A stretch of DNA of 64,000 nt. Source: Macrostomum lignano (taxonomy: Eukaryota). Numbering within the stretch: position 1 is the stretch's first letter; the number at the start of each line of letters is the position of its first letter. A program made the position numbers and the translations under genes. Where the stretch lies: contig NIVC01000262.1 of NCBI GenBank assembly GCA_002269645.1, positions 186,001 through 250,000 on the forward strand, read 5' to 3'. The notes beneath the pieces were generated by a model. It was given only the letters and a program-made list of their open reading frames with translations. It was not told where the DNA came from and ran no database searches. Of the stretch, positions 25,741 to 51,570 are shown piece after piece.

Positions 25741-27885
25741 GCAAGGGGTCTGCCCTCGAGCTCTGCGTCCTAATCTACATGTACATGTATGGTAGCTACG
25801 AGCTGGAAATTAACATGTATATCAGCGTCTCGACTTTCATTGGAGACATGAATGGAAGTACATACATGTATAGATACACCTTGGCTCCAAAGGACTACAC
25901 TGTATACGATATGCTCGTAATATGCACGTGTGCATGAACGCAAGTACATGTAAATCTACATCGTACTGTATATTGAAGCCAATATCAGGAACAGCTTGAT
26001 TTTAATTGGCGACTCTAGAGCTGTAGCCATGGTCTACATAACCCACGTAACCATGAATATCGCCAAATGATCGCACTCATGTCGCCACTCGATAAGTGGC
26101 GATAGCTCTCCCGGCAATATCTTCTCGATATAGCAGCGATATAAAGTGGCGAAAATTGTCTGTCATATAATTCCTACCGAATAGTTCCTGTAGAAACAAA
26201 GATTGCAACAAAATTTGTTTTGCATCAACCCGTATATCTACGACAAGGATTATTTTTGCGAAATGTCAGACATCGCCTCATTATCGCCATTTTTTAAATT
26301 GGCGATTAGTTTTGTAACGTGCACATGTATTATGGAAAATTTGATTCTTAGTCTGCATAGAAACAGCAGAGTAATACATTAATATATTTTTTGACTGTCC
26401 AAATGACCTGAAAAGCAAATATTTGAAAATCATAGAAATACATTGTTTTAATTATTTCACTCTCTTTGCTAATTCAAAAGTGATTCGCGCGCAAGTTATT
26501 CTGTTTTGTGAGATTCGCTGCTTCCTTTCTGTCTCCAATTTCTATGATTGTCAAAGAGCGTTTGTGTGAAAGTGCAAGTCAATCTGCCATATCCTATAGT
26601 TTTTCACTGCATATTCCAATTGCTATGAACTTTAATTAATGGAACTCCTTTTTCTATCAATGCATTAAAAGCCATTATGCATACAGTCCACAGTAGTGGT
26701 AGGCCTAGTCTGCAGTCAGCAATATAATTAGGCCTACTCTATCGCACTCAGAGTCAAAAACTGTTTGGCAATGAATATTCCATACTTATTGACTATTTGT
26801 ACTTCAAAATAAACAAAATCACATTTTGTTTTGTTCCAGTTTTTACTTTTAATAAATCTCCTAATAGCTATACAAAATTAGACTAGGCCTAGGGCTAGGC
26901 TAACCCTACTGATGTATGATAGGCCTAGCTATTAGGCCTAGTATTAGTATTATGTGGTGGCTACCTTTCCACTTCAAGTATGCCAAGGATTGCTAGGCCT
27001 ATTGATAAGCCTAGCTAATCAAATATGTAGCTAAGCCCATCTTTTCCACTTAAAATATGCCAAGGATAGCAAAATTTTATACATTCAGTCCAAAGGCTAA
27101 GTATCAACTCATGAAATCTATGGTAAAAGCTTAAATAAATTTTTGTCTTAAAAAATTAAATTTATGCTATTATATTAATACTATATTAATATGCATACTA
27201 ATAGGATAAACCGTATTGGAATAAACTCAAAAGGCCTATGGATGCTTACCACCATTTTTTAGGACAAATGCCATGCCACACCAGACACTATATACATTTT
27301 TGACTTTGTTTTCTTTGCATTTGTCTAGGTAAAAAGTAGGAATAAATATGACTCTACTTATGCATTGAAAAGCCTTATTATCTATTTAGTCATAAGGAGC
27401 CCATGTACCATGCCACCAAGTTTTTCTCCAAAGTATGCCACATGCCATAGGCATCTATATTTGTACAATTTGTCTACAATTTGTTTTTTCTCTTTGTTAC
27501 ATTATTATCAGTTATAATATTTATATATTATAAAAAATAAGAATAGTAATTCAATTTAAACAGTTTTCTAACTTGGCTTTAATTTGCAATTGGGTATCTA
27601 ATCAATTTATATATATGGTATATTTTTATTTTTTGACTAAGCTTAGGCCCTATTAAATATTTAAAATGAAATTTCTTTATATGTTTTTATAAATTTATAA
27701 TACTTATTAATAATATAATAATATATAAAGTTGTATAGTTTTTTCATACTTGTATTTAGTTTATGGAACTAAAAAGACAATATATATAATAAGAAAAATT
27801 AAGTGTAATACTACTACATTTTTATATTCATATTTTCTATAAAAAGAATATTAATTGGCTTATCCATTTTTCCAGAACTGCAAAC

Positions 27886-30219: not shown

Positions 30220-30833
30220 TGTAGAGAACAGTAAGTTATAACAAAACGCACTACTTAAAGTAATATTCTAACTAAATCAATTTAAACTCGCAATCTATTT
30301 TTAGAATGAGTCATGATGAGTCTTATCTATTTTTAGAAATTCTATTTTAGAATGAGTCACATACAAACAGAAGTGACTCAGAGCCCTACGTAGGACCGAC
30401 GTTTATTTGATCAAAAAACCGGTTCTCGTGAGTTTTATTTGCTTAATTCCATATCTGGTAATGCTCAAACATGCATGACCGCTTAATCAAACATTTTTGA
30501 CTATGTAAATACCCAATCCCAAACCGGTTTTTCTCCAAAATTTTGCTATAAATATAAGTGAAAATTCAAGTCAAAAATTCAGACTCGGAGCGGTCTCTAA
30601 GAAGACACTGAAGAAATAAGAAGACCAATCTCTGAGGGACCATACCTGTTCAATTGATAAAAGTCAAGGACTCCCGGAGGTACTGAGTCACCTAAGCCAA
30701 ACCAAGAAGCCTACAAGCCACTAAAGGATCCGCTGCAGTAAGTTATTTGAACTAGTAAATACCTAGGCACTTGTTCCCCAGTGTCTAGAAGTGGGAGTTT
30801 CTGAGTGACTGATCACCACTCTTAAACTCTTCA
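30220..30833 (+). repeat. 5' LTR
   Basis: TGTAGAGAAC...CTCTTCA. About 4 differences from the 3' LTR by manual comparison. Four TGA(G/C)TCA sites and a TATAAATA. Confidence 0.96.
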
Positions 30834-30835
30834 AC

Positions 30836-30853
30836 TGGTGATCTCGCCCAGGC
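30836..30853 (+). promoter_or_regulatory. Primer-binding site, tRNA-Val-like
   Basis: TGGTGATCTCGCCCAGGC lies 2 nt after the LTR. Its complement ...CCTGGGCGAGATCACCA resembles the 3' end of eukaryotic tRNA-Val as I recall it. Confidence 0.7.
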
Positions 30854-31217: not shown

Positions 31218-32635
31218 ATGGCTCGAAGAAACCCTACAGTGCATCGCGATGTCAAGGAAACTGTTGGAATGTATACCATAGATAAGGATTTTAACACCTT
31301 CATTGAACACTTCGACCTTGTAACTCGCGAATACGGACTACAAAATCCAGAAAAGGCACTTCTTCCTCCACTGCTAGAAGGTACTGCTCGAGAAATTTAT
31401 GGCAAACTAAATGCCGCGGCACAGCAAGACTACCATACTTTAGTTACACAACTGAGAGCACAATTCGCCAGATGTGGAACCAATCGATCTGTGCTTCTAC
31501 ACAAACTTCATAACCGAAAAATGAGTCCGACGGAATCCTTCCTTACTTTAGTCGATGACGTTCGCAAAATTATTAAAGCGTTGCACCAGCCACCACCACC
31601 GAACCCAGGAGCTCAGCCTATCGGACCAGCAGAACTAGCTGCACAAGAAAGACAACGCCTTGCTGACCAAGAACAAAGCCTAATCCTCCATGTCATTAAT
31701 AATGCTCAACCTTCGCTGCGAGACTGGTTGTTAAGAGAAACCATAGAGACAGGAACAATTAATTCGTTGCGGCATGCAATGGGAAGCAAGTACCCCACTC
31801 CTGACTTCTCGTAGTAGTGATACGACACAATTGGCAGAACAATTGAGCAAACTCATGCAGCAGTACCAAACTTCTGCAATCATGCCACAGTGACAGATAC
31901 GCTCCGCCACCCACTTGTTACACCTGTGGAAGAATTGGTCATTACGCCAGAGATTGCCGATCACGTGGCAATCCAAGACAATATAACGACAACAGAAGAA
32001 AAAATTGGACTCGTCCTCAAAATCGCAATTGGAACCCACCACAGAATAGACAAGGAAATGCCTTGGTACCTTATCGACAACAAAGAAATCCTCCCCCTCC
32101 AAGACAGCCGACTCAGGTCCGCAGACAATATGCTCAAGCTATTGAACCGGAATACACTCAAGTCATCGAACCAGAGTTTAAGATAGAGGATCTTATGCCA
32201 GACTTCACAATCAATGTCCTCGAAGAGCTTGAAAAACAAAAGGATAACACACGCAGCGAAAGTAGCTGCATGATGGGTTCCCTATTTGAAGAAGATTCAC
32301 CAATCTCTACCTCTTCTGAAGCACGCCCACTCTTCAGAGAAAATAAAAGACAACAACAAGCTGCCTCTAAGCAACAAAGCACATTATTTAAACTTCCGAC
32401 GATGGATAATTTTTCGGAAACTCACCGAGATGACAATTTCCAGGATCGTAAAGAAATGACAACACGTGAAGAAGACAGAGACCCAGCAACTTCTCAAAAC
32501 ATCTTTGAAGAAAGCGTTGACATGTTGCAGGTCCTAGTCGACGATATAGACCTGTCAGAAACACCTCCAACACAGGAACCAGACTATGAAAATATTGTCT
32601 CCCCTAGTCCAGTCCACGAAAAAATGGAAACATGA
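31218..32635 (+). pseudogene. gag: Gag (capsid-like domain, CCHC zinc knuckle, low-complexity tail), frameshifted
   Basis: LEGTAREIY..L...DY..L..QLRAQF and TESF capsid-type motifs. CYTCGRIGHYARDC knuckle at 31916-31957, in a shifted frame. Confidence 0.88.
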
Positions 32636-32978
32636 CAAGGCCACGAACACACAATCTAACCATTCGACACATGAAAAGTTCGTACAGACGGAGGATGACA
32701 CATATGTTTCAATGAACCTAGACTATGAAAGCGAATATGATGAACCGATAACAATAATGGAACCGGTTAACACTCCAACTGATGAGAATACACATCTTAC
32801 CGATATATCAAAATCAACCAACTTTATGCGTCCGATGTTGCAATCGCAGCCACCCACACCATTACCATGTTCCAACAAATGGCACTTTTCGACTCGCCTT
32901 ACTCCTCCGCCGTATCCTGAAGACAATCATGACAAGATTGAAGACACCCCACCAGTACCCACAAGAAGAAGGAAAAAA

Positions 32979-34248
32979 CATCCGCTACTGCAATGCTTCC
33001 TCACGATCTTGCTGATGACGATTGTTCCCACAGTACTGCCATCTTCTCTTCCCATGATCTGTCCTACTGATGGAGACATCCAGCCAGTCATTTACAAAAT
33101 TCCTACGGAAATCAAATGCAGTTACTTTAAGACAAACTAAACCAAGCCACTACCACTAACTATTGAAATATACAAAGCAAATACAAAGAAGCATCGACAA
33201 ATGGGAATTGTGTGCTTCCGAGAAAAGGATGAAATTGAAAAGGTTTGGCTGGTACAATGGAACCGAATCAGGTATTGGCAAACTTCGATGATGGTATCAC
33301 AAGAAGAATGCCTTCGGTGGAATCAAACTCTGTTTTCCGAAGATGGTCAATTAAAACTTCATGAGACGTCCGCCAGCGGAGCGCAACGATTCCGCACAAA
33401 AAATGTAGCTGATGGAAGATATATCCATTATCATCAATCACGATGGCCTACATACTCAGTCTACAATAGCTACCTCATCCGAAATGTCTTATTCTACCAC
33501 AATCCATTTGACAACATGGAATCCTTACAGCTACCCCTCGACCAGTGTCACTACAGCTCTGGATATTGTGCTACCCCTAACTACAACAAAGAAGAAGCTC
33601 AAAATTTACCCTTAGCACCGATTTATTTCCATGATTATCGATACCAAATTGAATATAGATCGGATTCCCGATATGAGGAGCCTAGCTGAACCCGCAAATA
33701 TTTCATTGCATGGGAAGTTAAAACTGAAATTGACTGCAAGCTGGAAAAATATCACATTGTTCAAGGGAAACTGCTATCTAACACCTTCCTTGCCGACTCA
33801 GGAGATTTGGCTCTTACATTTCCAAAGCAACCAAGCTACACACACTTGAAATGTAAAAACAAGGACGAGCAACTAATCCTCTCCGACCAAGAAATACCAA
33901 TCGCGCTTAAGGATATGGATAAGAATGTTTTCCTGAAGGTAGTAAATGGAACCTATCAGAGAGAAGATGTCATAGAACGACATAAGCGAGACCTACCTAA
34001 GCCTTCTCTAGTATCAGCACGACTTCTGGCAGCAAAACTAGCCGCCATGGAACATAAGCTACACAAGCAACTGAACTATCTGCATCGATCCATGGTCAAA
34101 CTAACGTACCGAATGCACGAAACCAGCCTAAATTACGCAAGACAGAACTATTATGCCAATCCCACGACGACCTTTAGGAAAATCACAGGTATTGAAGATG
34201 TCTTGGCAATTCCAGTTTACGGATATTTGCTAATCTATAAATGTACAC
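32979..34248 (+). pseudogene. env: Envelope glycoprotein, N-terminal part (class III fusogen, gB/chuvirus-G-like)
   Basis: Hydrophobic signal-like stretch at 32979-33044; Cys-rich ectodomain (EECLRW, DQCHYSSGYC, W....DCKL, SDQ); furin-like RHKR at 33978-33989; ANPTTTFRKITGIEDVLA..YGYLLIYKC. One frame, with in-frame stops at 33138 and 33687. Confidence 0.8.
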
Positions 34249-37200
34249 TAAGGGTGATCGAAAATATTTTTTTTCGATTTCTGACTTCTTTGTCTGATAG
34301 AGAGTTGTGAAATTATATGCATAAACACTAGCTATCATTATTTTTTCAAAATATTTTCATTTACCCCCTCCACACTCATCCCAAAGATGGCACCCCCAAA
34401 AATGACACCCAAAAATCGAAAATCAAGAATATCTCGAAAACGGTTAGTCTTACGACCTAAAAATGTATTACTAACAGATAGAAATAGGGCTATTTCCTAT
34501 CGATTGACGCCTATTACAGGTTCATATGTCATTCTGATCCCCTTCTACAGAAATATTGTCAATTTTCCTATCTTTAACATATGACTAACACAGAAAAAAA
34601 TGTTCTGGCCCAGTTTGGGATAAAAAATCGCTACTTTTGTCGGTGTTTCATCTTAATATGCCATAGCATATTGATTTTGTCGCATTTTACTTTAAATAAC
34701 ATCATAAATCGACTACGTGGCAAAGTGCACAATGTGCATCTGGCCATAGAATAAACTCGTTATACAGGTTAAGACTGTCTGATAGCTGATTCACTAAAAA
34801 TATTATTGAAGTCTTTGCCACTGCTTGCCATTGACGATAAAGCTCTTTGATTGCTAAATGCGCAATGCTTAGGTCTCAAGCCGAATATCCATTTTATGGA
34901 AGATCTCAGCAGCTCGATGAAGCTAACTGCAGTCAGTTGCCCACTGGCCTGGATGTTATGAGGCACTTGATGTTTTTGCGAGAGCAGGTAAGTTTATTGT
35001 TTTATTCTGTTGCATTTTTCTTGCTCTTTCATCAATGCGAGCAAATTGAATTTGAAATTATTCTTTTCAATCCACTTTCAGAAATCCAGAGGCTGCAGCA
35101 ACACAAATGAGGAATGCAGAGAAAGTGCTGTTGTAGTGCTTAGTATCTGGCGCAAGGCCAGCATTCCTACTGTTGCCTCTGTTCTGTCATTGGGGGCCAG
35201 AATACGGAATTTTTACGACAAGGGCCAAGACCTAAAAAAGATCCCAAGCTCTCGAGTCAATAATCGCTCTGTGCAGAAACGACTCAAGGATTATGAGCGA
35301 ACTCTCTGCAGAATCTTTGACATTGCTGCATGCCAGTGCTCAGATTTGAGGAAGTGCACATGCGAGAAGGGGAAGAAAATCCCAGTCCACGAATGGCAGT
35401 TCATGCGCGATCAGCGAAAGCAAAGGCAAATGCACATCGGAGCAGTGGATGCAGCAGAAACGCAGCAGCTGCAAAAGCGTCAAATGTCGCATAGCAACAT
35501 CCCAAAGCCGGCAGAAGATCACGAGCAATACGCTGTGCAGTTTGTAGATTCAGAATCCGATTGTGATGATGATATGGACTGTGATTTTCAGGCTTGCAGC
35601 GGCAGTGCTCAGAGCTCGTCAACTCAGGGGGCTCTGCCTACATTGCCCACAGTCGCCAAAATTGCTGACCGGTTCGCTCTGAGTGACGCATCAGTAGCTG
35701 CCGTTTGCTCTGCAGTGACCCAGGATTTGCAGATTCCTGACTGCGTCATTGACAGAAGCAAGATTCGTAGAGAGAGAAGTAAGCTGCGTAGTGATGCTAA
35801 TTTCCAAGCGTATTCGCGATCTCCGAAATCACTCTACTTTGATGGCAGGAAAGATAGAACCTGCGTTCATGGTGCAGCTGCAATCACAGAGGAGCATGTT
35901 GTGATGGTGGAGGAGCCAGGCTCCCAATTTATTGGTCACGTGACACCAGCTTCACCATCAGCTCGAGATACTTGTGATAGCATGCTTGAGTACTTTAATA
36001 GCAAGAGCATTCCATTAGATGAACTAGTTGTAGGTGAGTAACACTTGAAAATTGCAATCTGATATGCTAGAAATTATGCTCGTTTTACATTATTGCATAC
36101 CTTGTATCAAATTTCCTGCATCAAGCAGCATTTATATGCACTTTTGTATTGCAGTTGGATGTGACAGTACTCGCGTTAATACTGGCTGCCGTGGTGGTAT
36201 CATCCGTCTTCTTGAAGTGGCAATTGGTCGAACCATGCAGGTGGCTGTGTGCATGCTTCACCTCAATGAACTGCCTCTGAGACACTTACTTCAGTTCTAT
36301 GGTTGCTGCACCACTGGCGCACAGACTCTGAGTAGTGAGATCGGTCAGCAATTGGGAAACTGTCAGCTGAAATCTCCTGCTGATTTCCCAGCGATTAGTA
36401 ACCCAAATTTTCCCATCGTACCTCAAGATGTGGTGCAGGATTTGTCCACTGACCAGCAGTATTTGCTGTCGATGTGCAAGAGCGTGATTTCCGGAAGCAT
36501 CAGCGCAGAACTCGCTGCTCGCACTCCTGGCCCATTGAATCACAGCAGATGGCTCACGACTGCAAACCGGTTGCTAAGGCTGTATGTCAGTAAGAGCAAA
36601 CCTGATGAATGCTTGCTCAGATTGTGCAGTTTCGTCATTCGCGTTTACGCTCCATGCTGGTTTAGCATCAAATCACACGCTGCTATTCACGAAGGATCGA
36701 ATCATTTTTTGAAAATGATGAATCTGTGCAGATTGAACCTGACCGCAGCTGAGTGGAGCGCAGTATTTCCTGTGTTGCAAAATGGAGCCTATTTTGCCCA
36801 CTGTGAAAATGTGCTGATTGCAATGCTGGCCAGTGAGCAGGTCGCTGCTAGAAAAGAAGCGTTTCATGTCATCGAAGACATCCGGCAGCGGAGCAAGCAT
36901 TCGCCCGCATCTCAGCGCAGTTTCAAAGTTCCTCAGTTGAAAGGAAACGAGGAAACTTTGCCTGATTTGCTGAAAGCGAACCAAGACTTAACTGAGCCAC
37001 CACTCACTCGCAACCATTCACTTGCTCAGATCAGGCAGCTGGCTCGACAATCGCCCATACACTGGGATTATCCTTGCCACTCACAAGGAACTGAGCGCAT
37101 GATTCGTGCAGTTACTGAAGCCTCGCTGCGAGTGTGTGGTGCAGATTTGCGTGAAGCATTTGTTCGAGTGAGGCAGCAGAGTAGACAGGAAATGCCGCGC

Positions 37201-37792
37201 TTTCACAGCAAGAAGGACTTTTTTCAGTCCTAGATTAATCGCATTATCGTGAAGACGTACACTTGCAGGTTTAGTATCTATGTCATACTAATATGATTAA
37301 GTATACTGTACTGTTGCTTTTATTTCTGCTATTTTAATATAATTTGTTCCGTGCATTGCTTTCGAAAAAATTTTAGAATATTATAATAATAAAGCAGCGT
37401 TAAAGTAGCGATTTTTTATCCCAAACTGGGCCAGAACATTTTTTTCTGTGTTAGTCATATGTTAAAGATAGGAAAATTGACAATATTTCTGTAGAAGGGG
37501 ATCAGAATGACATATGAACCTGTAATAGGCGTCAATCGATAGGAAATAGCCATATTTCTATCTGTTAGTAATACATTTTTAGGTCGTAAGACTAACCGTT
37601 TTCGAGATATTCTTGATTTTCGATTTTTGGGTGTCATTTTTGGGGGTGCCATCTTTGGGATGAGTGTGGAGGGGGTAAATGAAAATATTTTGAAAAAAAT
37701 AATGATAGCTAGTGTTTATGCATATAATTTCACAACTCTCTATCAGACAAAGAAGTCAGAAATCGAAAAAAAAATATTTTCGATCACCCTTA
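34249..37792 (+). mobile_element. hAT-like (possibly hATm-type) DNA transposon, 3544 bp, inserted in env
   Basis: ~390-bp near-perfect TIRs starting TAAGGGTGATCG (34249-34637 and 37402-37792). 9-bp TSD AATGTACAC at 34240-34248 and 37793-37801. Confidence 0.92.
34865..37233 (+). CDS. Transposase, 3 exons, 717 aa, intact
   Basis: Exons 34865-34987, 35082-36033 and 36155-37233, with GT-AG introns in compatible phases. Motifs YFDGRKD, GCDSTRVNTG, CMLHLNELPLRH, HSRWLTTANR, CHSQGTER (DDE with CxxH and RW). Confidence 0.88.
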
Positions 37793-37801
37793 AATGTACA
37801 C

Positions 37802-38406
37802 CGATCAACCACTTTAACATCTTGCCATCAAATACTACAACAACCTGCTACGACAAACCTCCAATCGAGGCCTTTTACAAGGGAAGGCGCATCCGAGGAT
37901 TTTTGGACACTGTCCACAATATTATTGTTGGAACCGCCATTCCAAGACCATGTACAAACTCAGCCAACTATTTCAACTTAAACGATCTACTACACCAAAT
38001 TTCGTCGGCAGGCGATATTAAAAACATTTCAAACTCGCAAGTTATTGTTGACGAGACATACGAAATGACGGACCTCCAAGTAAAATTCAATAAAACAACA
38101 TACAAACCCTTTGGAGATATTAAACTAGACGAAATCACCCCAGGATGGACTATCAACGATTTCCTGCAGGTTTTTATTTCACAACGGCAAGTACTAACAA
38201 AACTGTTCACGGAACGACAGCAACGAGATGCAGATCGACCTACATCTCCAATAGGAATGACTATGCACAATGCCATTCAATCGTTTTGGTCAAATAGCTT
38301 TCTGGACCTAATACAAGGACGAGGAAGTCTATACCAAGGTTTTCTTTTCTCCAGCGCTTGCATTGTATGGATCTACTTAGCGCTACTCATTCTTGTCAAA
38401 GTAGTC
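37802..38406 (+). pseudogene. env: Envelope glycoprotein, C-terminal part with transmembrane helix
   Basis: After removing the insertion the frame reads YKCT|PINHFNILPSNTTTTCYDKPPIEAFYKGRRIRGFLDTVHNIIVGTAIPRPC, matching the gB-type C..CY..P....G.L...N.I......C pattern. TM at 38338-38406. Confidence 0.8.
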
Positions 38407-38649
38407 CGATGCGCAGCAAGAAATTGTCCACAAACTCGAGGCATCTTTCAAATAATTAAACAAACAGACACTACCACTACAGGAGAAGAACCAACCGAAG
38501 AGACACCTATGCAAGTTCAAGAAATTCGATCAGAACCTACAGCACCAGAAACCTCAAACATTTATCCAAAAATCGATTTCAAGCCAGCAATTCCTCCGCC
38601 AATGTCACCTCCACTACCAACCGACCCAAAATGGCCAGCCAACTACGTC

Positions 38650-41600
38650 TGTACTCTCCAAGCCAATATGGGAAGAGCAATGGCTCAAGTACTTGTCAAC
38701 AACAGGCCCAGCAAAGCACTGCTTGATTCTGGAAGCTCCATCACTGTCATTACTAAGAGACTATATGGCAAACTACAACTTCGAATGCGACCATCATCCA
38801 TCGCTGTTGCTGGAGCAGGTGGACATGCGCTTAATATCCTTGGACAAGTTGGGATTATGCTCAAACTGGCAAATAAACAACTCCCTGTTCAAGCATTTGT
38901 TATCGACCACCTTCCAAGTCAAGATGTTATCATTGGAATTGACACATTCCAAAAACTGAATCTACCCTTGACATTTGATTTTAACAAACAGACATTCAAA
39001 CTAGACAACGTAGAACACCCATTGGTCAGCCAAGTTCATTTACAACCTAAAGTTCATCTCCGACAAGATGTATTCATACAGCCTGAAAGCACTTGTTGGG
39101 TTAAGGCTTATCTAGTAAATAACGAAGACGTCGAAGAAGCTATGATTTTCGAACCAAGAAAGAAACTACTAACAACAAAGGAAGTTCTAATTCCAACGGC
39201 ATTGGTCCTGATCACATCAGAAAAAGTTATTCCGGTACAGATTGTCAACCCTCACCAACATCCCGTTAAGATCTACGCAGGAACATGCATGGGACACCTC
39301 AACACACAAGCCTCCGTCATGCTGATTCAACATACAAAACCAACAAGGATGTCAAAGCAACAATTCTTACAACAAATTGATCTCTCGCAAAGTCCCATTA
39401 CGGAAGGACAAAAAACACAGGTCAGAGATCTACTTTGGAAGTACAATGACGTCTTTTGTCATCATGATTACGACATTGGTCGCGCTCGCGACATCAAGCA
39501 GAAAATCGAACTGCTACCCCACCAGGAACCCATCCAATGCAAACCATACCCGGTAGCAAAACATCTGCAACAACATTTTGATGAAATCATCGAAAAAATG
39601 CTCAAGGCCGGAATCATCAAACGAACAGTCTCAGCATATTCATCACCGTGTCTACTAGTTGAAAAAAAGGAAACAAATGAAAGACGACTTGTCTGTGACT
39701 TTCGAGTCCTAAATAAATACATCCCCACAGATCAACAAAGTCTACCAAAGATTTCGGAACTATTGGCACGACTGAATACAGCTACTCTCTTCACCGTATT
39801 TGATCTACGACATGGCTTTTGGCAAATTGAACTTGAAGAAGAATCGAAACAATATACAGCATTCAAGACCTACAAGGGAGAAGTCTTTGCGTACCAGAGA
39901 AGCCCAATGGGAATTTCCAACTCCCCAGCGACCATGAGCCGCTTAACAGCCTACATGCTAGCGGGATGTACGAATCTATTGCATTATGTGGACGATATTC
40001 TCGCCTTCGGCGATAATTTCGAACAACTACTGAGTGTCATGGAACAAGCTCTCTTTCTACTTCAGAAACAAGGACTAAAACTACAACCTACAAAATGTAA
40101 ATTCTGCAGAGATTCAGTCCGATATCTGGGACATCATGTTTCAGCAAGAGGAATTTCACCCGACCCTAATAATGTCGAAAAGGTCAAGAAGTTCCCCAAG
40201 CCTACGACACTTACAAAACTACAATCATTCCTTGGATTAGCACAGTACTTCCGAAAATTCCTACCTAACTTCGCGCAAACTGCAAAGCCATTATATGAGT
40301 TGTTGAAGTTACCGAAATGGAAGGAAGAAAATTGGAAAACGGAACAGCAAAACAGTTTTGATAAAATTAAACAGCAACTAACCAGCGACGCTCTGCTCAA
40401 ACACCCAGACTTCCAAAAGCCGTTTATTATCGAAACCGATGCATCAGGAAGTGGTTTAGGAGCTGTACTACTACAAGAAACAGATCAGAAAAAGGAAAAA
40501 CCAATTGCCTTTATCAGCCGAGCCCTGCGTCCAAATGAAACAAAATGGTCTGCCACCGAACGTGAATTACTAGCGATTTTATTCGCTCTTCGACAGTTTC
40601 ATTACTACATCTACGGATCACCGCTACCAACCATCATCCGCACAGACCACGCACCGCTGACTCATGTTGTCAAAACAAAAGGACAAACGAATAACAGACT
40701 TATCCGGATGGTCCTCAAAATTCAGGACTATAACTTTCATCTCATCTATAAACCAGGACCTACAAACAAGGCCGCGGATGCGCTATCAAGAGCATATGAA
40801 GTCAATGCTGTCCACCCCATTCCAACCATGATGGATCTATTGAAAGCGCAGCAAGAAGATAATTTCTACAAAGCTGTATACGAAGACACAGAAGAAATGC
40901 AAAAACCGCTCACCAAGATCGAAAAGAAATTTTTACGGAAACAAGGCAATAATCTCATCTTCAGAGAACTAGCACTTTACTGGCTGCACAATAATACCCC
41001 AAGATTGTACCTACCATACAACTATCGCGCTGCAATCCTACATGAACTACACGACACACTCCTAGCCGGACATTTATCTGCCAAGAAAACAATCAACAGA
41101 ATAGCCCAGTTCTATTTCTGGCCAACAATGAATGCAGACATCCGCAATTACTGCCTACAATGCCACTCATGTGCTAAACTACTAAATATCCAAAAAATTT
41201 TCACCTCCACCTACAATCCAAAAGCTAACCTAGTAGAACGATTCCATAGAAATCTACACGAAATGTTGACACACTTCGTCTATAAGCAACCTGAAGATTG
41301 GATCATATACCTGCAGTCAGTGACAATGGCCTACAACAGTGCAGTACACCGTTCAACAGAGAACACACCGTTTTTCCTTATGTTCTCTCGAGACTTTCAG
41401 CCACCAAGCCTACTAGTCCAAAAACTGTTACCTTCTCAGTACGTGGAAACGCCAACAACACTACAAAAGTTTACTTCGCAGCTACACCTGGCATGGCAAA
41501 TCGCGAAACACAATTTAGAAAATCAACAGGCAGTAGTCACCACCAGCAATCATACATCTACTCTACAAGTCAGAGACATCGTTTACCTACATTACCCTGC

Positions 41601-41877
41601 GCAACATACGCATAAACACGCACTTAAATACAAAGGACCATTCCGAGTAACGGCATTGGTATCGGCAACAACGGCACGCCTCGCTAATATCCAGGATCTA
41701 CATCAACCTCAGTTCTATGTTCACATTCAACGTCTAAAACGTATCACTAACGACACTACATTCCTCCCAGACCTACAAAATCCAGACCACACAAAACAAC
41801 AAACAAACACATTGCCACTGCACACGCCGAAACATAAACAACAAACGCACCACCTGTCGGTCATACGTACAACCTAA
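38650..41877 (+). CDS. pol: Pol (PR-RT-RH-IN), in frame with env; integrase core internally deleted
   Basis: LLDSGS at 38725, RLVCDFR, YVDD at 39985, ETDASG, TERELLA, TDHAPL, H..GH/CHSC. The sequence then jumps at ~41180 to LNIQKIFTSTYNPKANLVER, lacking both catalytic Asp motifs; YKGPF is present. Confidence 0.95.
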   Translation, partial: CTLQANMGRAMAQVLVNNRPSKALLDSGSSITVITKRLYGKLQLRMRPSSIAVAGAGGHALNILGQVGIMLKLANKQLPVQAFVIDHLPSQDVIIGIDTFQKLNLPLTFDFNKQTFKLDNVEHPLVSQVHLQPKVHLRQDVFIQPESTCWVKAYLVNNEDVEEAMIFEPRKKLLTTKEVLIPTALVLITSEKVIPVQIVNPHQHPVKIYAGTCMGHLNTQASVMLIQHTKPTRMSKQQFLQQIDLSQSPITEGQKTQVRDLLWKYNDVFCHHDYDIGRARDIKQKIELLPHQEPIQCKPYPVAKHLQQHFDEIIEKMLKAGIIKRTVSAYSSPCLLVEKKETNERRLVCDFRVLNKYIPTDQQSLPKISELLARLNTATLFTVFDLRHGFWQIELEEESKQYTAFKTYKGEVFAYQRSPMGISNSPATMSRLTAYMLAGCTNLLHYVDDILAFGDNFEQLLSVMEQALFLLQKQGLKLQPTKCKFCRDSVRYLGHHVSARGISPDPNNVEKVKKFPKPTTLTKLQSFLGLAQYFRKFLPNFAQTAKPLYELLKLPKWKEENWKTEQQNSFDKIKQQLTSDALLKHPDFQKPFIIETDASGSGLGAVLLQETDQKKEKPIAFISRALRPNETKWSATERELLAILFALRQFHYYIYGSPLPTIIRTDHAPLTHVVKTKGQTNNRLIRMVLKIQDYNFHLIYKPGPTNKAADALSRAYEVNAVHPIPTMMDLLKAQQEDNFYKAVYEDTEEMQKPLTKIEKKFLRKQGNNLIFRELALYWLHNNTPRLYLPYNYRAAILHELHDTLLAGHLSAKKTINRIAQFYFWPTMNADIRNYCLQCHSCAKLLNIQKIFTSTYNPKANLVERFHRNLHEMLTHFVYKQPEDWIIYLQSVTMAYNSAVHRSTENTPFFLMFSRDFQPPSLLVQKLLPSQYVETPTTLQKFTSQLHLAWQIAKHNLENQQAVVTTSNHTSTLQVRDIVYLHYPAQHTHKHALKYKGPFRVTALVSATTARLANIQDLHQPQFYVHIQRLKRITNDTTFLPDLQNPDHTKQQTNTLPLHTPKHKQQTHHLSVIRTT

Positions 41878-42019
41878 GACCTCGTTAAATTATTCTATTT
41901 ATGTCCCCGTGTAGTGACCGGGATAAATAATAGCACTACAGCTTCCTCAAGCTTGTCGTAAGAGGCGACTAAATCCTTGTTTTCCTACAAACACTCACAC
42001 AACTTCGACAAACACGACA

Positions 42020-42677
42020 ATGGATTGTCCTATCTGTCTCGGAGAATTTTCATGTAAACTACCTTGTATATGTGTCAATAGACACCAGGTGTGTGGTTCT
42101 TGCTTAAGCCTTGCACATTACAAAAAACCTTTAAAAAATTGCCCTATGTGTCGAGGTAATCTCCGTCAATGCATGATATGCAACTCCTGGCGCACTGAAC
42201 AATATTGCTTAAATCAACATTTTATGTGCACACAATGTATTAAGAAGCTTGCTTATCGCTCCATTTGTCAGTGTCCTATATGCGATACCACCCCTTTACC
42301 TAAAGTTAACAACAAACTTGCATGCATTCAAGCAGACTAGCTCGTATAACCTACAGCTTCACCCATTCACTTATGCTCTTTTTCCATCACATGCTATAAT
42401 TATCCGCCTCAGATCATGGCCCATACCACGTGTTGCTTATAAAACACGTAAATACCTCGTTCGCTATTCCTCTTCCTACGGTTCTAGACTCCGGCAATTA
42501 TCTCCACAAGAAATTGAACATAAGCTGTTTAAAATTGTTAATGATATGAATTTTCACCCATGCCCCATCCTCTGTACAACTCTACCTGCACTCATTCTGC
42601 GTAATGACGACTTATCTTACATATTACCACCCCAAGAATCGTATCAGTATATTAGTTCCGAATCAGAAAGTAATTAA
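42020..42677 (+). CDS. Accessory ORF A: tandem double RING-HC protein (42020-42340, possibly extended by a frameshift to 42677)
   Basis: C-x2-C-x11-C-x3-H-x2-C-x2-C-x12-C-x2-C followed by C-x2-C-x8-C-x3-H-x2-C-x2-C-x11-C-x2-C. Confidence 0.8.
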
Positions 42678-42693
42678 TATCTTGCCCACAGAT

Positions 42694-43290
42694 ATGGAAG
42701 ACTGCCCGATATGCCTCGACACCAAGCCGTATATGGTGCCTACGTGCGCATGGGGCCATCTGGCCTGCAACGACTGTGGCGAAAGAGAGGAAATTACACG
42801 ATGTCCACTCTGTCGACAAGACAGGGTGTGGTGTATCGTTTGCGGCGACCTCCCCCAACTCCAATTGTGCACCCAGGGCCATTGGAGTTGCGTTTCTTGT
42901 GCCGAAACAATTGCACGCCGCGACATTCGGCACTGCCTAGAGTGCGGTTGGGCAATGACAACCACCACGCTAGACTACACGCGTAGAATACCAATCGTTC
43001 CGGAAACCCAGCTCCACACGGAACAAATAGCCACAATGTCCACAGCTGACCTGACGTGGGCCATCCGGACACGGCCCGTGACCTTACGCCAAGTCGTCTT
43101 CCGTGACAGACTGCTAGAAATGGGCCGCAACATCACGGTGGACACTACAATCACCACCGACGTGACAGCCTATCTCACCATCCTCGACAGGACAGAAGAT
43201 ACAGGCTACACACCACTTCAGTTCCTATACTGGCCAATGGTCACCTTAATAATGCGGCTAAAGGCCATGCTAAGGCATGCCTTCGAGTAA
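42694..43290 (+). CDS. Accessory ORF B: tandem double RING-HC protein, 198 aa
   Basis: MEDCPIC-x10-CAWGHLACNDC-x8-CPLC then CIVC-x8-CTQGHWSCVSC-x11-CLEC, followed by a non-Cys C-terminal region. Confidence 0.82.
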   Translation: MEDCPICLDTKPYMVPTCAWGHLACNDCGEREEITRCPLCRQDRVWCIVCGDLPQLQLCTQGHWSCVSCAETIARRDIRHCLECGWAMTTTTLDYTRRIPIVPETQLHTEQIATMSTADLTWAIRTRPVTLRQVVFRDRLLEMGRNITVDTTITTDVTAYLTILDRTEDTGYTPLQFLYWPMVTLIMRLKAMLRHAFE

Positions 43291-43543: not shown

Positions 43544-44158
43544 TGTAGAGAACAGTAAGTTATAACAAAACGCACTATTTAAAGTAATATTCTAACTAAA
43601 TCAATTTAAACTCGCAATCTATTTTTAGAATGAGTCATGATGAGTCTTATCTATTTTTAGAAATTCTATTTTAGAATGAGTCACATGCAAACAGAAGTGA
43701 CTCAGAGCCCTACGTAGGACCGACGTTTATTTGATCAAAAAACCGGTTCTCGTGAGTTTTATTTGCTTAATTCCATATCTGGTAATGCTCAAACATGCAT
43801 GACCGCTTAATCAAACATTTTTGACCTATGTAAATACCCAATCCCAAACCGGTTTTTCTCCAAAATTTTGCTATAAATATAAGTGAAAATTCAAGTCAAA
43901 AATTCAGACTCGGAGCGGTCTCTAAGAAGACACTGAAGAAATAAGAAGACCAATCTCTGAGGGACCATACCTGTCCAATTGATAAAAGTCAAGGACTCCC
44001 GGAGGTACTGAGTCACCTAAGCCAAACCAAGAAGCCTACAAGCCACTAAAGGATCCGCTGCAGTAAGTTATTTGAACTAGTAAATACCTAGGCACTTGTT
44101 CCCCAGTGTCTAGAAGTGGGAGTTTCTGAGTGACTGATCACCACTCTTAAACTCTTCA
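43544..44158 (+). repeat. 3' LTR
   Basis: Near-identical to 30220-30833; preceded by a weak purine tract (GGGAGA). Confidence 0.96.
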
Positions 44159-44329: not shown

Positions 44330-45700
44330 TCACATTCTCTTAATCACAATTGTTAACGCAAACTCTTCACCATTAATATCGACTCTATCTCCATCCTCTG
44401 TTTCAAACTTCAGAGCAATCTCATTAATTTCTTTATTGCTCAAAACAACTCTATTCACTGGATTGGGTTTCTCTACCAACATCTGATCGCCAGAAACAGA
44501 GTTTGATATATTAAAAAGTACATTTGTACGTTTACCTTTGAAGACCCAATCAAGACTCAAATTGCTACGAATTAAAATATTTAAACCTTTTACAATGTCG
44601 GCAATATTTGAAGTGTAGTGACTGGCTGCTAACTGGTTATTCAGCAGCATTCACTAGCTTTCCCTAAGAGTGCTGTGATACGCTGCACAGTTGCTCAGTC
44701 CACCTGATCTAGTGAGAGAGATACCCTGTGCTGGGCCTGAGTGTTTACTGCCCGATGACTCATCGCCTGAGAGGGCGCGGCAGCCACACTCAATGTTTTC
44801 CCCTCCCGCGCCGAGGAGGCGTAGCAGGATGACTCATCACCTGCGCGGAGTGTAAGGGCTGCCTAGAGGGAGTAAACAGGATGACTCATTCGCCCACGAT
44901 TCTATTTTTAGCACAGACTAAGCACGTGACTGTGCACGCACTCTGTGCATGGCCACTGACCTTGAGTCACGCCACTGCTGCGTGACAGGGTTGCCTTATT
45001 TGGAAGTTGGCCTTGGATCACGCGTCGCTCGCATGATTTTAATGCCCAAATAAGGAAGTTTCACGCGCTCACCGCATGAAACTCACGTGACTTTTGGGGG
45101 TCCGCTCGGCTATAAATACGGAGCATCTGCGAGCCATTTTTCTCCAGACTGCGTCGTCTCGCGGAGCATCGTGGCTGACTCGAAAGCCTTCTCCGAGCTC
45201 TCCTCTCTCATTTCAGGTTTTCAGGTTCGAGCAGCATTCTACTAAGACGATCGACTGTCGAGACATTTTCAGATTTGCCTTTGCTCCGAGCGTTTTCGTT
45301 ATTTTATTTCAGGTGACGGATAGACAACTCTGCCGACGCGTCGAGTCCGCACACCAAGGTGGCAGCAACCCTACCAAGTCAAGGCTAACGTTTTAGGTTC
45401 ATTTTCAGTCAAATCGATAGGTAGTACAACGGTGCTATCTAGCTTCTTCAGGAGCAGCGGGTTCTATTTCTAGGAAGATCTTCAAGAACCCGAGAAGGAG
45501 TAGTACTTCAGAAGCTAAGTACAAACCTTCTTTGTAAACTTTTGCTTCAAAGCCCATCTCTCTGCACCATGTGTCATTTTTAAACTCAATCTCAGCATCT
45601 TTATGAACTTGCAAGACAACTCTCATCACAGTGAGATCATAGGATAGTTTAGAAGGGAACAGTTTATTGTCTGGTCTACTTGGATTAGGTTTCTCAAAGT
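44330..45700 (-). pseudogene. Maverick/Polinton minor capsid (penton)-like gene remnant, split by a solo LTR
   Basis: C-terminal part NILIRSNL..G....L.NI......VEKPNP....I.EIALKFETEDGDRVDINGEEFALTIVIKR (44330-44650). Upstream part VVLQVH..IEF....EMGFEAKVYKEG (45435-45629). Confidence 0.6.
44674..45431 (+). repeat. Solo LTR, different family from the 30220 element
   Basis: Starts TGTGA, ends ACAACG (CA probably mutated). 4-bp GTGC flanks at 44670-44673 and 45432-45435. TATAAATA and four TGA(C/G)TCA sites. Confidence 0.6.
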
Positions 45701-46659
45701 GTTTTCGCTTAGAAAAAAAACATTCTCGAAAAAGTAATTATAAGTATCCACACTTTGTGTGCTTGCGGGAAGGGAAATCACCTCTGCTATCGCACCCTTT
45801 CATTTGTAATAGAACTTGTTATTAGCCAGGGTCAGAAGTAGTATGATAAGGGGCTGCGCCACACTTATTGCTCGGGTGCATTGCGCGCCAGCTCGCTGGA
45901 TGACTCAGTGAGGGCATGTGGGGGCATTGGCATGTGAAATATTTCACAGAACAGATTTTTCAGAATTTTTATACTTTTTAAAAAGGAGGGTGCCCTCGCC
46001 CTCATGCCGTCATTCATTTTGAAAATGACTAAAAACAGGTGAAAAATGACTAAAAACAGGTGAAAATGGTCTGAAAACAGCGACTTTTTGTGATTTTCAA
46101 AAATTTAAAAAAAGTGCAATTTTCACGATTCCAGCTCTAAAACCATGAGAAAAGTTGGATTCACGGGTCAATTCAATGCAATTTTAGGTATATACAATAC
46201 GAAAGTGTCATCCAATTTAATGATAGTAAATTTTATATATATGAAATTGCCTTCAGTAAACTATTATTTATATGAAATGCTTTAGATATTCAGTCAGTTA
46301 TAATAAAACTAGCACCCATCCTCTCCACTGGCAACTTTTTCATTCATAAATATTATCAAGTCCATATATGGTATTGTCAATTCGTCTTATGAATGAAGTT
46401 GTATGTAGTTTCATACAAATCTAGACCCCAACGAGTCTAAAGAAAAAAATTACAAGAGAGGACAATATCCAACGATACTAAATATAGCACACAAGTTAGC
46501 TACACACGCCCAACACGCTGAAACCTGTTGAGAAGATGTAGGCGTATATATGAATATAAAACGCAGCATGAGTCTTCTAAATATCTACCACCGAAAAGAA
46601 TTTTCTCCACTCTGTTACACATTTGCCTTACTTTTTGCACCGTCTACATCAACTACATC

Positions 46660-47426
46660 ATCATGGACAAGATCGAAAGCAAAATTGTCTCGAAAATCCA
46701 AGAAGTGAGTTCTTCTGATCAACCTTCTCTCGTTATTTCTCTTAACGGCCTATTGAAACATGAGAAGGAAAGTCTACTTACAATTTTGGAAAAACTGAAG
46801 ACTACACCAAAAGAAAAGAAGCCCTCCAGTGGCAAATCGACATCGGAATCGGCTAGCTACTTGCTAAAATTGATATGAACCTGGAGGTGATTATGCGAAG
46901 GAGATGCATAGTCAAGACTGACTTCAAGGATTGTCGCGATGTGCTAGGCATCAAGATTGATAATATGGCTGACAAAGATCTCGTCGAGCATTTCGATCTC
47001 CTTGGAGGTATTGTGGAGTCGCTGGACGTGCTAAAATAAATGCTTGAATTCAAGCGCGGGCGGATTGTTGATAAGATGCTAGCTGAGTTAAAAAGCGATG
47101 AAGCTGTTGGTGAAAAGCTTGGAATCGACTTCAGCTACGTCAGACGTCTGCACAACTTTTTCAAGTTTGCCTCTACATTCCCCGCCATCGTATACACAGG
47201 CTACTCCTTTGCTACTCTACTGCGGTTTAAAAAAACGATTGAGGATGAGGCAAAAAGCGATGTGAATTTCGAAACGATGCTTCTCTACAAACCAACCTGC
47301 TACTTCGACTGCGATGAAAAGCCTCGAGTTGTGAGGAAACAGTGGGAAGTTTTACAAGACTTGAGTGACAGACCGATTTTAGAAAAGACGCCCAAATGTA
47401 CTCATAGAAAAGACGCCCAAATGTAG
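46660..47426 (+). pseudogene. Intronless degraded ORF, possibly a Maverick accessory gene
   Basis: Near-continuous coding sequence (MDKIESK...; MLEFKRG...RLHNFFKFASTFPAIVY) broken by a frameshift and a stop. It lies between the penton-like and protease-like remnants. Confidence 0.4.
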
Positions 47427-47630
47427 GGAGTTATTAAACCATACCGTAATGCTCTACTTAAAGTAATATTCTAGGAAAGTCTATTTATTTTAGAATGAGT
47501 CAAATCTATTTTAGCAATCACGCGCAAACAGAATGATTTAGAACCCTACATTGTTTGAACAAAGAACCGGATTTTAACAGCTGTATTTGCTTAACCCCAT
47601 ATATGGTTATGCTCAAACATGCATGACCGC
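47422..47630 (+). repeat. Truncated LTR fragment related to the 30220 LTR
   Basis: Shares CTACTTAAAGTAATATTCTA, TTTTAGAATGAGTCA, ATTTGCTTAA and ATGCTCAAACATGCATGACCGC with LTR positions ~30250-30482, but is clearly diverged. Confidence 0.8.
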
Positions 47631-48001
47631 AAGTAGTAATAGAAAATTACGTCTATACCCCATTTGTCAATTGCAAAATACATAATAAGGTACCCGTCAA
47701 ATATTTTATTACGCACATACCTTATTTTTCTATTTAAAATTAAATTGTTAATAAGTGGTACCATAATGGTACCATACGTACCATTCGGTACCGAACTAAA
47801 TTGTTGGGTATTCTACAGGAATTCTAACTACAATGCACCATACCCACAAAGAATACAAAAGAAAAGATCTAAATTTCGATCAACCAACCAACGTGTCCAA
47901 AAACGCATTTTCGGTATATTTCTGCATTACAAGAATAGAGGCAACACTTGTGTTGCAAAGCGTCGTAGGCAAAAATACGCGCGCCGAAACTCATTTCCTC
48001 G

Positions 48002-48535
48002 TCAAGGCCCACAACCAAGAACATGCGTTAAAAGAAATAGAAGGCTACCACCACGAGTCAGTTTGAAATACAAATAAAACAACACCCAAATACGACACCC
48101 ACCTCGCTCGTACCACAATGACGAGTCCGAGGATCCTGAATAGCGAATCGACTGTAGGACCCCACATTTCGAAAATCCCCACATTCTCGCCCCAACCACC
48201 CTCTAATGGCATTGGCATTGGGTTGAGTGATTTTTCGGTGGATTTAAACCAAGCGAATCAAAATATTTCCCGACTCTTCATCCACAGCGCCCCCTAACCC
48301 GCCTACTACTCACTCAAACCGCAACCCAATGCCTACCAGGAAGATTCGAATTGTCTGTATTCGCCACAAAGAAATAGTCTTTACCATCTGAAGGAAATTG
48401 TCCAAGAGTTCTAATCGAGTCCTGAGGATACACACCCAAAAAGACAACACCAAACAGTCCCATACATAGATTTGTAATAATTGACCGCAAAAATCTATCA
48501 CTGACACCCTGCAACATGTTCAGATTCACTTCCAT
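48002..48535 (-). pseudogene. Maverick/Polinton adenain-like cysteine protease remnant
   Basis: FLGVYPQD, FFVANTDNSNLPGRHWVAV, YFDSLGLNPP, LQS and WVLFYLYFKLTRG occur in order, with several stops. Confidence 0.8.
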
Positions 48536-49382: not shown

Positions 49383-51570
49383 ATGTCCCGCCGAGTTATA
49401 TCCACCCTCTGGGATAATAATCGCCCCTCCGAAGAGTTAACCGCCCTCGACGGTGAAATCCCTGAACATATAGTTCCCCTAGGCACTGAAAACAACGGAA
49501 CTGATAATAGGCGAGCTGATCAATATTTAGCTTGGGCTATGGCCTATGATAGTGACCCCGAGTCTGAAGTTTTCGACCTCCCGCTGTTGGCTATCGGAGG
49601 GGTTGTGAACGGTGCCCCTGTTGCTGCTGCCTCCGATTGCAGCAGCAGCAATCGGAGGTGCCACCTGCAGAAATTGAACCTGCCAATGCATTGGCTGCCC
49701 TGGATGTCAGTCATCGGGAGCTGGTACTGCTGATACCAGACACGCAATCGGCAATGCGCTGGCTCAGTTGTTATGGGCTAATCCGGAACTCTTTGCAGTG
49801 CTAGAACTGCAACATCGCTATGAGCCTACATTGCCACGAAGCTGCTGACTGTAGCGATGGCTGGCGTTGGGCCTGCAAGATGTGTCAGTGACATAGGGCC
49901 ATAAGGACAGGCTCATTCTTTGCCAAGAGTCACCTATCACTGATACAGCTGGTTGATCTCATTTATTTCTTTGCCCGGAACACCAGGGCAACGGATTTTA
50001 TGCGAGAGTGCCACTTTGGGTCGTGGAGTACTACCATAGACTGGCTAAATTTTGTTTGCGACATATGTGCCCAGTACATCCTTGACCATCTGGTGCAGCT
50101 CGGTGGACCAGGTCGAGAAGTCGAGATCGACAAGAGCAAATTTATGCACAGGAAATACCACCAGGGTGCATACAAAGAGGGCCACTGGGTGCTGGGCATG
50201 GTGGAACATGGTACAAACCACTGTGTAATGGTAGTCATTCCAGATCGCTCGGCTAATACTCTGGTTCCTATCATTAACCAGCATATATTACCAGGCACCC
50301 GAGTGATCACTGACCAGTGGGCGGCCTATAATCAACTGGCCAATCATGTTGTAGAGTGTTCTACCTCCCGTTAAAAGTTAAAAGTAAAAACCGTAGAAAC
50401 TACTGTTAAGTAAGCTAGTGCATGCATGCGTACTTAAACCTGAAAATGATGCAAGTTGCTATTTATAGCATATGAATCATGTTCCCATTTATAGCGAATG
50501 AATCATGTTGCTGTTCATGGCGACAGAGTGATTCATGTTGCTATTTATAGCAGCAGGATGATTCATGTTACTATATTTAGTAACAAAATGAGTCATGTTA
50601 CTATTTTCAAACGCAATCAATCTTATTTCCCCTTGTAGCGCAACAAGTGACTCATGAAGAAAAAGTCTATAAATACAAGCGGCCCAACGCGGCACCGGAG
50701 TCATTCTCCCCACGGAAGAGGAGCGCTCCGAAGAGGTGTCTTTAGAAAGACATCCTAGTTAACCAGTCAATCGAGACTCGGTTCGGTTGTTGCGGTAAGC
50801 CTTTCTTATTTGCGCCAGTTGTTGCAAGAGACGTCTCGCTCTAGTCTATTGAGACTCGAGATCATTAAAGTCTATTGAGACTTTTAAGTCTGTTGAGACT
50901 CCCTTGGCTGTAGTCGCCCGAAGGACTACCCTAGTAGATATTAGAGGAGCTACTACAGATATCCGGAGCATTACCTAGAGTGCATCGAGGCACTGCTAGA
51001 AGAAGAAGGCTTAACTGATACCGCTATTCGGCGCAGGGTACCCATTGTTAAATCGAAGCTTCTGATTGGTCCTGACAACCGGCCGGAATCCTGACGACCG
51101 GCCGGAACAACTTCATCGGAAGTAGAAGAATAAGCAGGACCGAACAACAGATTCAATTTGTTAACACTTCCGGAAGACAAGGAGAGAGACCTACACGAGA
51201 TCTACTGAGAGAACAAAGGAGATATCTCACCAGGAATCAGGGTAATTGAATACATTCATTTGATTACTGGGTTGCCTAGCTAAAGAGCTAGAAGTGATTG
51301 TTCCTTGATTATCCAAGGACTGGTAATAAGGAACACATCAATATGACCATTAATCACTCTATCTGGTTTGTTGACCCTAATGATCCTACCATCCATACAA
51401 ACACCATTGAGGGTACATGGGCTAACTGCAAGGCTAAGTACTGGGGGATGCATGGTACTGCGAATGGCCTGTTCGAGATGTACCCACAAGAGTTTTTATG
51501 GCGCCGGCTGTTCCAAGAGCGTCAATTCGGGAACATGTTGTATTGGATATGCCATTATTATCCATGTTAA
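49383..51570 (+). pseudogene. Merlin (IS1595/ISXO2-like) transposase, split by a solo LTR
   Basis: LGGPGREVEIDKSKF..RKY..G....WVLGMVE, DRSANTL.PII..HILPGT.VITDQWAAY. After removing the LTR it reads ANHMTINHSIWFVDP..IHTNTIEGTW. The catalytic DES motif is mutated to DKS and the 5' part is frameshifted. Confidence 0.88.
50350..51340 (+). repeat. Solo LTR, 991 bp
   Basis: TGTAGAG...ACATCA, with a 4-bp TSD carrying one mismatch (ATGT/ATAT). Removing it restores the Merlin frame. Internal ~28-bp tandem repeats at ~50445-50610 and a TATAAATA. Confidence 0.75.

Follow-up and report, generated by a model that had tools for sequence, protein, structure and literature searches.

A spliced tandem double-RING gene cassette downstream of pol in an env-bearing Ty3/gypsy element of Macrostomum lignano, with candidate accessory ubiquitin ligases as its products

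Among the closest described systems are the flatworm errantiviruses of the order GAG-ENV-POL, which carry an HSV/gB-type env and include Mlig_errantivirus_2 (PMC13524379), and the planarian Burro/GYPSM1 elements, giant gypsy elements in which env lies in frame between gag and pol and in which ubiquitination and apoptosis domains are also encoded (PMC6431247). A RING has been annotated in the Gag of Osvaldo and Isis-like gypsy elements, as well as in a Pao element (PMC3630058). The LTR families of M. lignano have themselves been classified in a study whose main text mentions neither env nor RING (PMC12801592). Extra ORFs are likewise kept by LTR lineages of bdelloid rotifers (GDSL and DEDDy ORF3s; PMC5408684) and orchids (AlkB; PMC9289625), where they belong to other enzyme classes. 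The terms RING and ubiquitin are absent from the searched text of the rotifer paper, and the searched text of PMC8557442, PMC5678591 and PMC13534243 gave no RING precedent. As for the errantivirus study, ubiquitin, zinc fingers and accessory genes are absent from its main text, RING is absent from seven supplements, and these parts describe neither splicing nor a cassette at the 3' end (PMC13524379). We found no description of a cassette like the one reported here in the literature covered; subscription papers, Repbase, an earlier Macrostomum LTR survey (cited in PMC12801592) and the original Burro paper were outside that scope.

The window analyzed here is a stretch of 64,000 nucleotides of M. 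lignano DNA. It holds a Ty3/gypsy LTR retrotransposon of the order gag-env-pol, which hosts two double-RING ORFs; the features of the element given below lie on the + strand. The 5' LTR (30220-30833) begins with TG, ends with CA and is 99.35% identical to the 615-bp 3' LTR (43544-44158), ahead of which stands a short purine tract. On both sides the element is flanked by a target duplication of 4 bp, ACAC. The 5' LTR has a TATA-like site near 30547, with TATAAA 286 bases from the LTR end. The primer-binding site (30836-30852) starts with TGG 2 bases past the 5' LTR, and a pattern search for the gene of the priming tRNA found none. The gag-env-pol region (31218-41877) is broken in the window copy, and in sister copies it forms one frame of approximately 2,500 amino acids (2,503 in L110). 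Pfam domains of this frame are a zinc knuckle, protease, RT, RNase H and integrase, the pol order being PR-RT-RH-IN. Env, with signal-like and transmembrane segments and hydrophobic peaks at residues 616 and 1218, was found between gag and pol, in agreement with a preliminary description of this DNA that had called the element enveloped; the env matches PF24664 (Monjiviricetes_fusion) weakly (E=9e-5, 21 bits, under the cut-off of 27).

The window copy has suffered frameshifts and stops, its integrase core has a gap near 41175, and an unrelated DNA transposon (34249-37792) with terminal inverted repeats and a 9-bp target duplication has been inserted into env. The transposon is missing from sister copies L131 and L132; its inverted repeats are long, and its frames of 349 and 394 amino acids have no significant Pfam match. 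The copy is a recent but damaged insertion. In the parts of PMC13524379 consulted, Mlig_errantivirus_2 resembles this element in gene order, Ty3/gypsy pol and host species and may resemble it in having a class III-type env, and the primer-binding site listed for it in the supplement equals the first 12 bases of that in the window. Its listed LTR of 864 bp and element length of 10,591 bp fit a subfamily with a shortened cassette, and the same source assigns a probable sister family to the type ENV_HSV (PMC13524379).

Several further observations were made in and around the element. A PPxY late-domain-like motif lies between Gag and Env in three of the eight families examined (L110:3723, L131:2515, L118:2987; near 32900 in the window). 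Window positions 47441-47630 are approximately 80% identical to part of the U3 of the element's LTR and adjoin short unannotated ORFs at 46522-48077. Just past the 3' LTR, a 106-amino-acid frame on the - strand (44330-44650) may correspond to the C-terminal end of a minor capsid protein of the Polinton/Maverick type. Frames at 11173-14746, 27793-29874, 20899-21537 and 338-1066 presumably include CACTA-like (two transposase-like frames) and mariner-like elements, and a second gypsy pol is found among them.

Both double-RING ORFs lie between the pol stop at 41877 and the 3' LTR, where the preliminary description had placed them. ORF1, of the type we call R1, spans 42020-42677 with its ATG at 42020, and is laid out as RING1, RING2 and a helical domain. 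Its frame in the window ends at approximately 42338-42340, after 106 residues, and the remainder of the gene is in another frame. This early end is common to the window copy and one near-identical copy; in 9 of the 16 closest copies the frame runs to 216 residues, adding the helical C-terminal domain. The 106-residue form is therefore a damaged one and not a natural protein. ORF2 (type A; 42694-43290) is intact in the window copy, with 198 residues comprising RING1 (4-40), RING2 (47-84) and a helical domain (approximately 105-198).

Each ORF has two units of the pattern C-x2-C...C-x3-H-x2-C-x2-C...C-x2-C. Across all six frames of the window the double pattern occurs nowhere else, and none of 50,000 shuffles of either protein contains it, so the pattern search and the shuffles agree with the earlier reading of two C3HC4 RINGs with C-x3-H spacing in each ORF. 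That the ORFs are paralogues, as had also been proposed, is borne out by genome searches, alignment and a tree. Pfam placed ORF2 near Sina_RING (E=3e-6, 27.7 bits, curated cut-off 29.3) and gave ORF1 a marginal zf-C3HC4 match below the curated cut-off (E=0.18). The best UniRef match was an M. lignano gene model of the ORFs themselves.

The predicted model of ORF2 (mean pLDDT 94.8, pTM 0.85) consists of RING1, RING2 and a bundle of helices. The two RINGs are homologous to each other (hhalign 94.7%, E 6e-8) and are joined by a near-constant linker. RING1 has the eight C3HC4 zinc ligands and the RING fold, and residues 1-46 superpose on the RNF146 RING (Z 5.3, rmsd 1.7, 45 aligned). The best PDB matches of the profile were RING E3s, namely RING1B (8.5e-6), SIAH1 (1.1e-5) and TRIM21 (2.8e-5). 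RINGs that activate an E2 are marked by hydrophobic residues at the E2 interface together with a linchpin arginine. In RING1, an Arg directly follows the last Cys in 22 of 22 rows, preceded by Pro in at least 90%, and the residue after Cys2 is hydrophobic in most rows, mostly Leu or Tyr. That Arg is missing from RING2 in all 21 parsed rows, and Cys2 of RING2 is followed mostly by a polar residue or Gly. By analogy with known RINGs, RING1 would thus be the E2-activating module and RING2 a structural one. The preliminary description had counted four E3 RINGs, which overstates the case: the RING1 half of the claim stands on its E2-binding hallmarks, and RING2 is without E2-activating residues.

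From these residues and folds it is quite likely that the proteins have ubiquitin ligase activity. They could instead be non-catalytic decoys or adaptors, in which the RING pair would bind some protein (an E2 of the host, a partner of the SIAH or TRIM kind, or another) and block it with no transfer of ubiquitin. The bare RING2 would suit such a role, as would the C-x3-H spacing that is common to host SIAH and TRIM-like genes, on which the RING1 profile scores 25-33 bits. The invariant Arg of RING1 and its preceding Pro, however, are as expected if activity has been selected, and we consider a decoy rather unlikely.

The helical domain has a nearly invariant Trp-Pro and is all helical in the models. 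No Pfam family was found for it in more than 1 of 19 members, its best PDB sequence match had an E of 0.08, and its best BFVD match an E of 1.7. The best structural match was VIA (Z 6.4 and rmsd 6.0 for the domain alone, Z 6.8 with the complete model), values that ordinary helical arrangements also reach; the want of a closer match does not in itself make the fold a new one. With foldseek, the complete model drew a RING1B-BMI1 fusion as its first PDB row (E 0.065, TM 0.2), which we did not count as support. Look-alikes in the atlas were mostly viral clusters at 0.78-0.87, and we treat these, and with them a viral origin of the RING genes, as leads only. Three homology searches gave nothing further: a word-index search that used the 22-row alignment found none at E 0.001 among 663 scored candidates, the C-terminal alignment matched none of the longer proteins at E 0.01, and 54 pattern matches in one metagenome scan included none that was confirmed.

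The cassette proteins share with the SINA/SIAH family the C-x3-H spacing, a best or leading Pfam match to Sina_RING and SIAH1 among the PDB matches; where SIAH has a pair of zinc fingers and a TRAF-like beta-sandwich for its substrate, they have a second RING and the helical domain. They also depart from the RING-B-box-coiled-coil order of TRIM proteins, since in place of a B-box they have another RING, itself homologous to RING1. Among host genes the RING1 profile scored SIAH (32.7 bits) and TRIM-like RINGs (24.8-31.6 bits) alike, so that either a SIAH or a TRIM-like gene may have been the donor. The host genome also has a tandem array of TRIM-like genes (L169-L171, on G000:C210) whose RING has the unusual C-x3-H spacing. 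Viral RINGs (the ICP0 family, NCLDV, adintovirus, arenavirus Z) are likewise small accessory genes of the ubiquitin system, the likeness being to single RINGs with all E above 0.06. By this analogy the cassette proteins may work like viral accessory E3s; they belong to neither the SIAH nor the TRIM family.

Expression was followed in contigs of four runs (X1, X5, X9 and X18), which were aligned to L131, a natural sister copy with the same ORF2 type. A GT..AG joint, L131:265->9052, skips 8,786 bases and was present in contigs of runs X1 and X9, from two studies and presumed to be RNA; it is not listed for X5 or X18. The joint maps to the window donor 30737|30738 and to the base homologous to 42692, two before the ORF2 ATG. 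The donor in the 5' LTR (30733-30743) has its exon end at 30737 and its intron starting with GTAAGT, a motif found 92-96 bases from the LTR end in three of five family LTRs examined. The ORF2 acceptor (42680-42691), just before 42692, is the one that the preliminary description had proposed for a subgenomic spliced message, and the joint of X1 and X9 ends at the homologous base. Most groups of second-position paralogues have an AG only a few bases from the ATG. Since the X9 contig is identical to L131 where they match, its source was an L131-type copy and not necessarily that of the window. Complex retroviruses also express their accessory genes by spliced subgenomic messages, as in the present splice; the lentiviral Vif, Vpu and Vpr hijack host cullin ligases and encode no RING.

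Ahead of ORF1 is a conserved non-coding block of 68 bp (41905-41972) with short hairpins and a candidate acceptor AG at 41940-41941. The block is 94-96% identical across families whose integrases are approximately 72% identical, and the YAG of the candidate acceptor is kept in all R1 groups shown. None of 15 joints listed, of 27 on L131, leads to this acceptor. Contigs of X5 and X9 that start at L131:8285 were considered as marks of ORF1 acceptor use, a reading that we dropped because copies diverge just upstream and this explains the starts equally well.

Genome searches gave at least 141 matches to ORF2 (150 of 206 candidates scored) and at least 150 to ORF1 (150 of 222). We defined the clade by 91 integrase loci that were at least 63% identical, taken from 137 matches; the rows left out were 37 from the outgroup, 7 that were the second piece of a split hit, and 2 short fragments. 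An R1-type gene lies within 800 bp downstream of the integrase at 87 of these 91 loci (107 R1 rows used), and a second-position gene within 3 kb at 41 of them (96 rows used). RT is 78-100% identical among the cassette families, and no cassette match was found at 11 outgroup loci with integrases 32-37% identical. Unrelated, unannotated other ORFs stand downstream of pol at 7 of these 11 outgroup loci; those directly after pol have approximately 255 residues in L135, L136, L138 and L142 and 172-362 in L139-L141, with a second ORF of 105-121 residues in L136, L138 and L142. A distant family, L133:204-8759, has gag-env-pol as a single frame of 2,852 residues.

A tree of 45 natural full-length proteins and 4 outside hits resolved the paralogues into five types, each supported at 97 or more: R1, which is always first, and A, B, C and D. 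They are combined two or three to a cassette in the orders R1-A (the window), R1-B, R1-D, R1-B-A and R1-B-C. In RT the window copy and the C717 copy are 99.4% identical, and in ORF1 96.4%, whereas the C583 copy is 98.7% identical in ORF2 and 96.8% in the spacer that follows, and only 88% in ORF1. The switch point is the ORF2 acceptor. The window lineage is a mosaic, second-position paralogues having been swapped between near-identical backbones. Beyond M. lignano, Logan assemblies contained three homologues of full length (E 4e-38 to 3e-33) and two that are partial. One of them, P0002, groups with R1 at 42% identity, and the split between R1 and the second-position genes therefore probably extends beyond this genome.

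Selection was estimated as pairwise dN/dS (Nei-Gojobori) in 26 pairs, which are not independent. All 15 pairs with dS between 0.1 and 2 gave dN/dS of 0.11-0.31 (z 2.7-5.8); of the others, 8 were saturated or above 2 and 3 were too close to tell (0.39, 0.53 and 1.62). The RING and C-terminal parts are constrained alike. Compared with 0.005-0.06 for RT and 0.06-0.17 for env, these values show that selection maintains the RING genes at the protein level, and that their evolution is more rapid than that of the element's core. No pair with usable dS has a pairwise dN/dS near or above 1, and there is thus no sign of an arms race.

These data bear on whether the ORFs are merely transduced host sequence evolving neutrally, or a host family that sits among elements. 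Such a reading could point to the frequent loss or shortening of the cassette, and to two decayed R1 fragments (L128, L152) that stand alone with no element sequence nearby. Those were the only exceptions at 27 places checked for context, most of them picked for want of an evident pol; the remaining 25 have LTR, pol or cassette sequence of the clade. Purifying selection also extends to dS above 1, acceptors are kept before most second-position genes, and the host SIAH and TRIM-like genes are of a different architecture. We regard neutral carriage as very improbable and already largely refuted. The preliminary description had named two findings that would speak against its own reading of the ORFs, absence from other family copies and near-identity to a host gene without purifying selection. 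Neither refutes it: the ORFs are present family-wide, they are under purifying selection, and they are not near-identical to a host gene.

At 48 of the 91 integrase loci an R1 match is found with no second-position gene within 3 kb, and nearly all of these loci belong to two dispersed, recently amplified subfamilies with a shortened R1. Deletions of approximately 1.2-1.3 kb were confirmed at four of four such loci examined. Many of the loci retain long pol frames, so amplification needs no whole cassette in cis, and an element can copy itself in this genome with the whole cassette dispensable in cis. The cassette may work in trans, or count only for long-term survival or spread.

A non-autonomous derivative is present in six copies (L166, at G000:C2869:74222-81095; L007-L011 and L013). 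It has lost 4.4 kb comprising half of env, the protease, RT and most of the integrase, and has retained gag and both RING genes; in all six copies ORF1 is open and the type-B gene is full length. The deletion junction was also seen in run X9. Nested clade copies form dense clusters in G000 in which every RING hit is on one strand, at C2121:8000-66000 (17/17), C87:229000-276000 (14/14), C1130:2000-42000 (12/12), C272:359000-424000 (13/13), C4009:39000-48000 (7/7) and C1405:246000-276000 (7/7). Such clusters may be flamenco-like piRNA clusters or the outcome of self-targeted insertion, and some may be homologous copies of one locus.

The proteins might serve the element's own cycle, either as ligases or adaptors that ubiquitinate Gag or Env in budding, trafficking or turnover, or as a RING matrix-like membrane protein. 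The R1 group of the largest families starts MGNALSK or MGNAQSR (form MGxxxS[K/R]), which we take to be an N-myristoylation-like motif, Env is predicted to be membrane-bound, and arenavirus Z proteins are among the weak fold matches (E above 0.2). The R1 type of the window, however, does not start with this glycine. A shifting target outside the element would account for five diverged, swappable paralogues better than a single conserved task within it, the derivative keeps both RING frames open with its protease, RT and most of its integrase gone, and outgroup gag-env-pol relatives do without the cassette. On balance we think a role in the element's own cycle unlikely.

Comparison with the described elements sets the cassette apart. 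Burro resembles the present element in its flatworm host, in an env in frame between gag and pol and in extra domains tied to ubiquitination, but its AIR1, MATH, BIR, BCL2-like and SUMO-like domains, in the text available, lie mostly inside a 4,900-residue polyprotein or in an upstream ORF (PMC6431247). The elements of the Osvaldo, Isis-like and Pao type have one finger within the Gag or polyprotein frame, in contrast to the separate double-RING genes found here (PMC3630058). Unlike Burro, the present element has stand-alone, spliced tandem-RING paralogues downstream of pol. Ubiquitin-pathway cargo in flatworm env-bearing elements thus has a precedent in the domains of Burro (PMC6431247); for a spliced, swappable, stand-alone tandem-RING cassette we found none in the literature covered.

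The same domains lend something to another possibility, that the proteins are active E3s that remodel the host cell (its survival, proliferation or stem-cell state) rather than acting on defence proper, since the BIR, BCL2-like, MATH and SUMO-like domains of Burro are read as meddling with apoptosis and ubiquitination (PMC6431247). The window LTR also has four AP-1-like TGA[CG]TCA sites (43631, 43677, 43698 and 44009) where 0.07 are expected, but four other family LTRs have 0-1, and the Pfam scan found no apoptosis-related domain. We therefore hold remodelling of this kind to be improbable. Sites resembling the AP-1-like ones are also visible near 44690-44890 and 50580-50660.

The reading we favor, with a probability of roughly 0.4, is that the RING genes are accessory E3 ligases encoded by an env-bearing Ty3/gypsy clade, probably of errantivirus type, and aimed at host defence. 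The LTR promoter would yield a genomic RNA for one Gag-Env-Pol polyprotein, and the donor in the 5' LTR would be spliced to an acceptor before a downstream gene to give a separate mRNA, a joint seen in contigs for ORF2 and one that we infer for ORF1. RING1 would bind and activate the E2~ubiquitin conjugate, RING2 would be its structural partner, akin to the inactive half of a RING pair, and the variable helical domain or a surface of RING2 would pick the substrate. The two or three diverged, exchangeable paralogues would then each have another host protein as target, in all likelihood a restriction or silencing factor that the element meets in spreading between cells or animals. The division of labor between the RINGs and the host-defence target are both what we infer from these data. 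The counter-silencing or anti-defence role put forward in the preliminary description thus survives in part: family-wide presence, selection, the splice and the marks of RING1 speak for it, whereas positive selection was not seen and two subfamilies have lost most of the cassette.

We advance a fuller version of this account more tentatively, as somewhat doubtful in its whole extent. The element would have evolved independently the layout of a complex retrovirus, with a spliced, exchangeable cassette of single-chain double-RING ligases that bear new substrate-binding domains and degrade host silencing or restriction proteins, such as PIWI-pathway or TRIM factors, and with the cassette-less subfamilies riding in trans.

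Suppressors of silencing encoded by transposons are well known mainly from plant DNA transposons, and to our knowledge little has been established about how invertebrate env-bearing retroelements handle host defence. The cassette offers small candidate ligases, predicted to be well folded, under selection and spliced, in a flatworm with transgenesis and RNAi, so that their targets can be sought directly. The tandem RING with its helical domain is of interest as a possible single-chain RING pair, and the targets would name restriction factors that matter in a stem-cell-rich animal.
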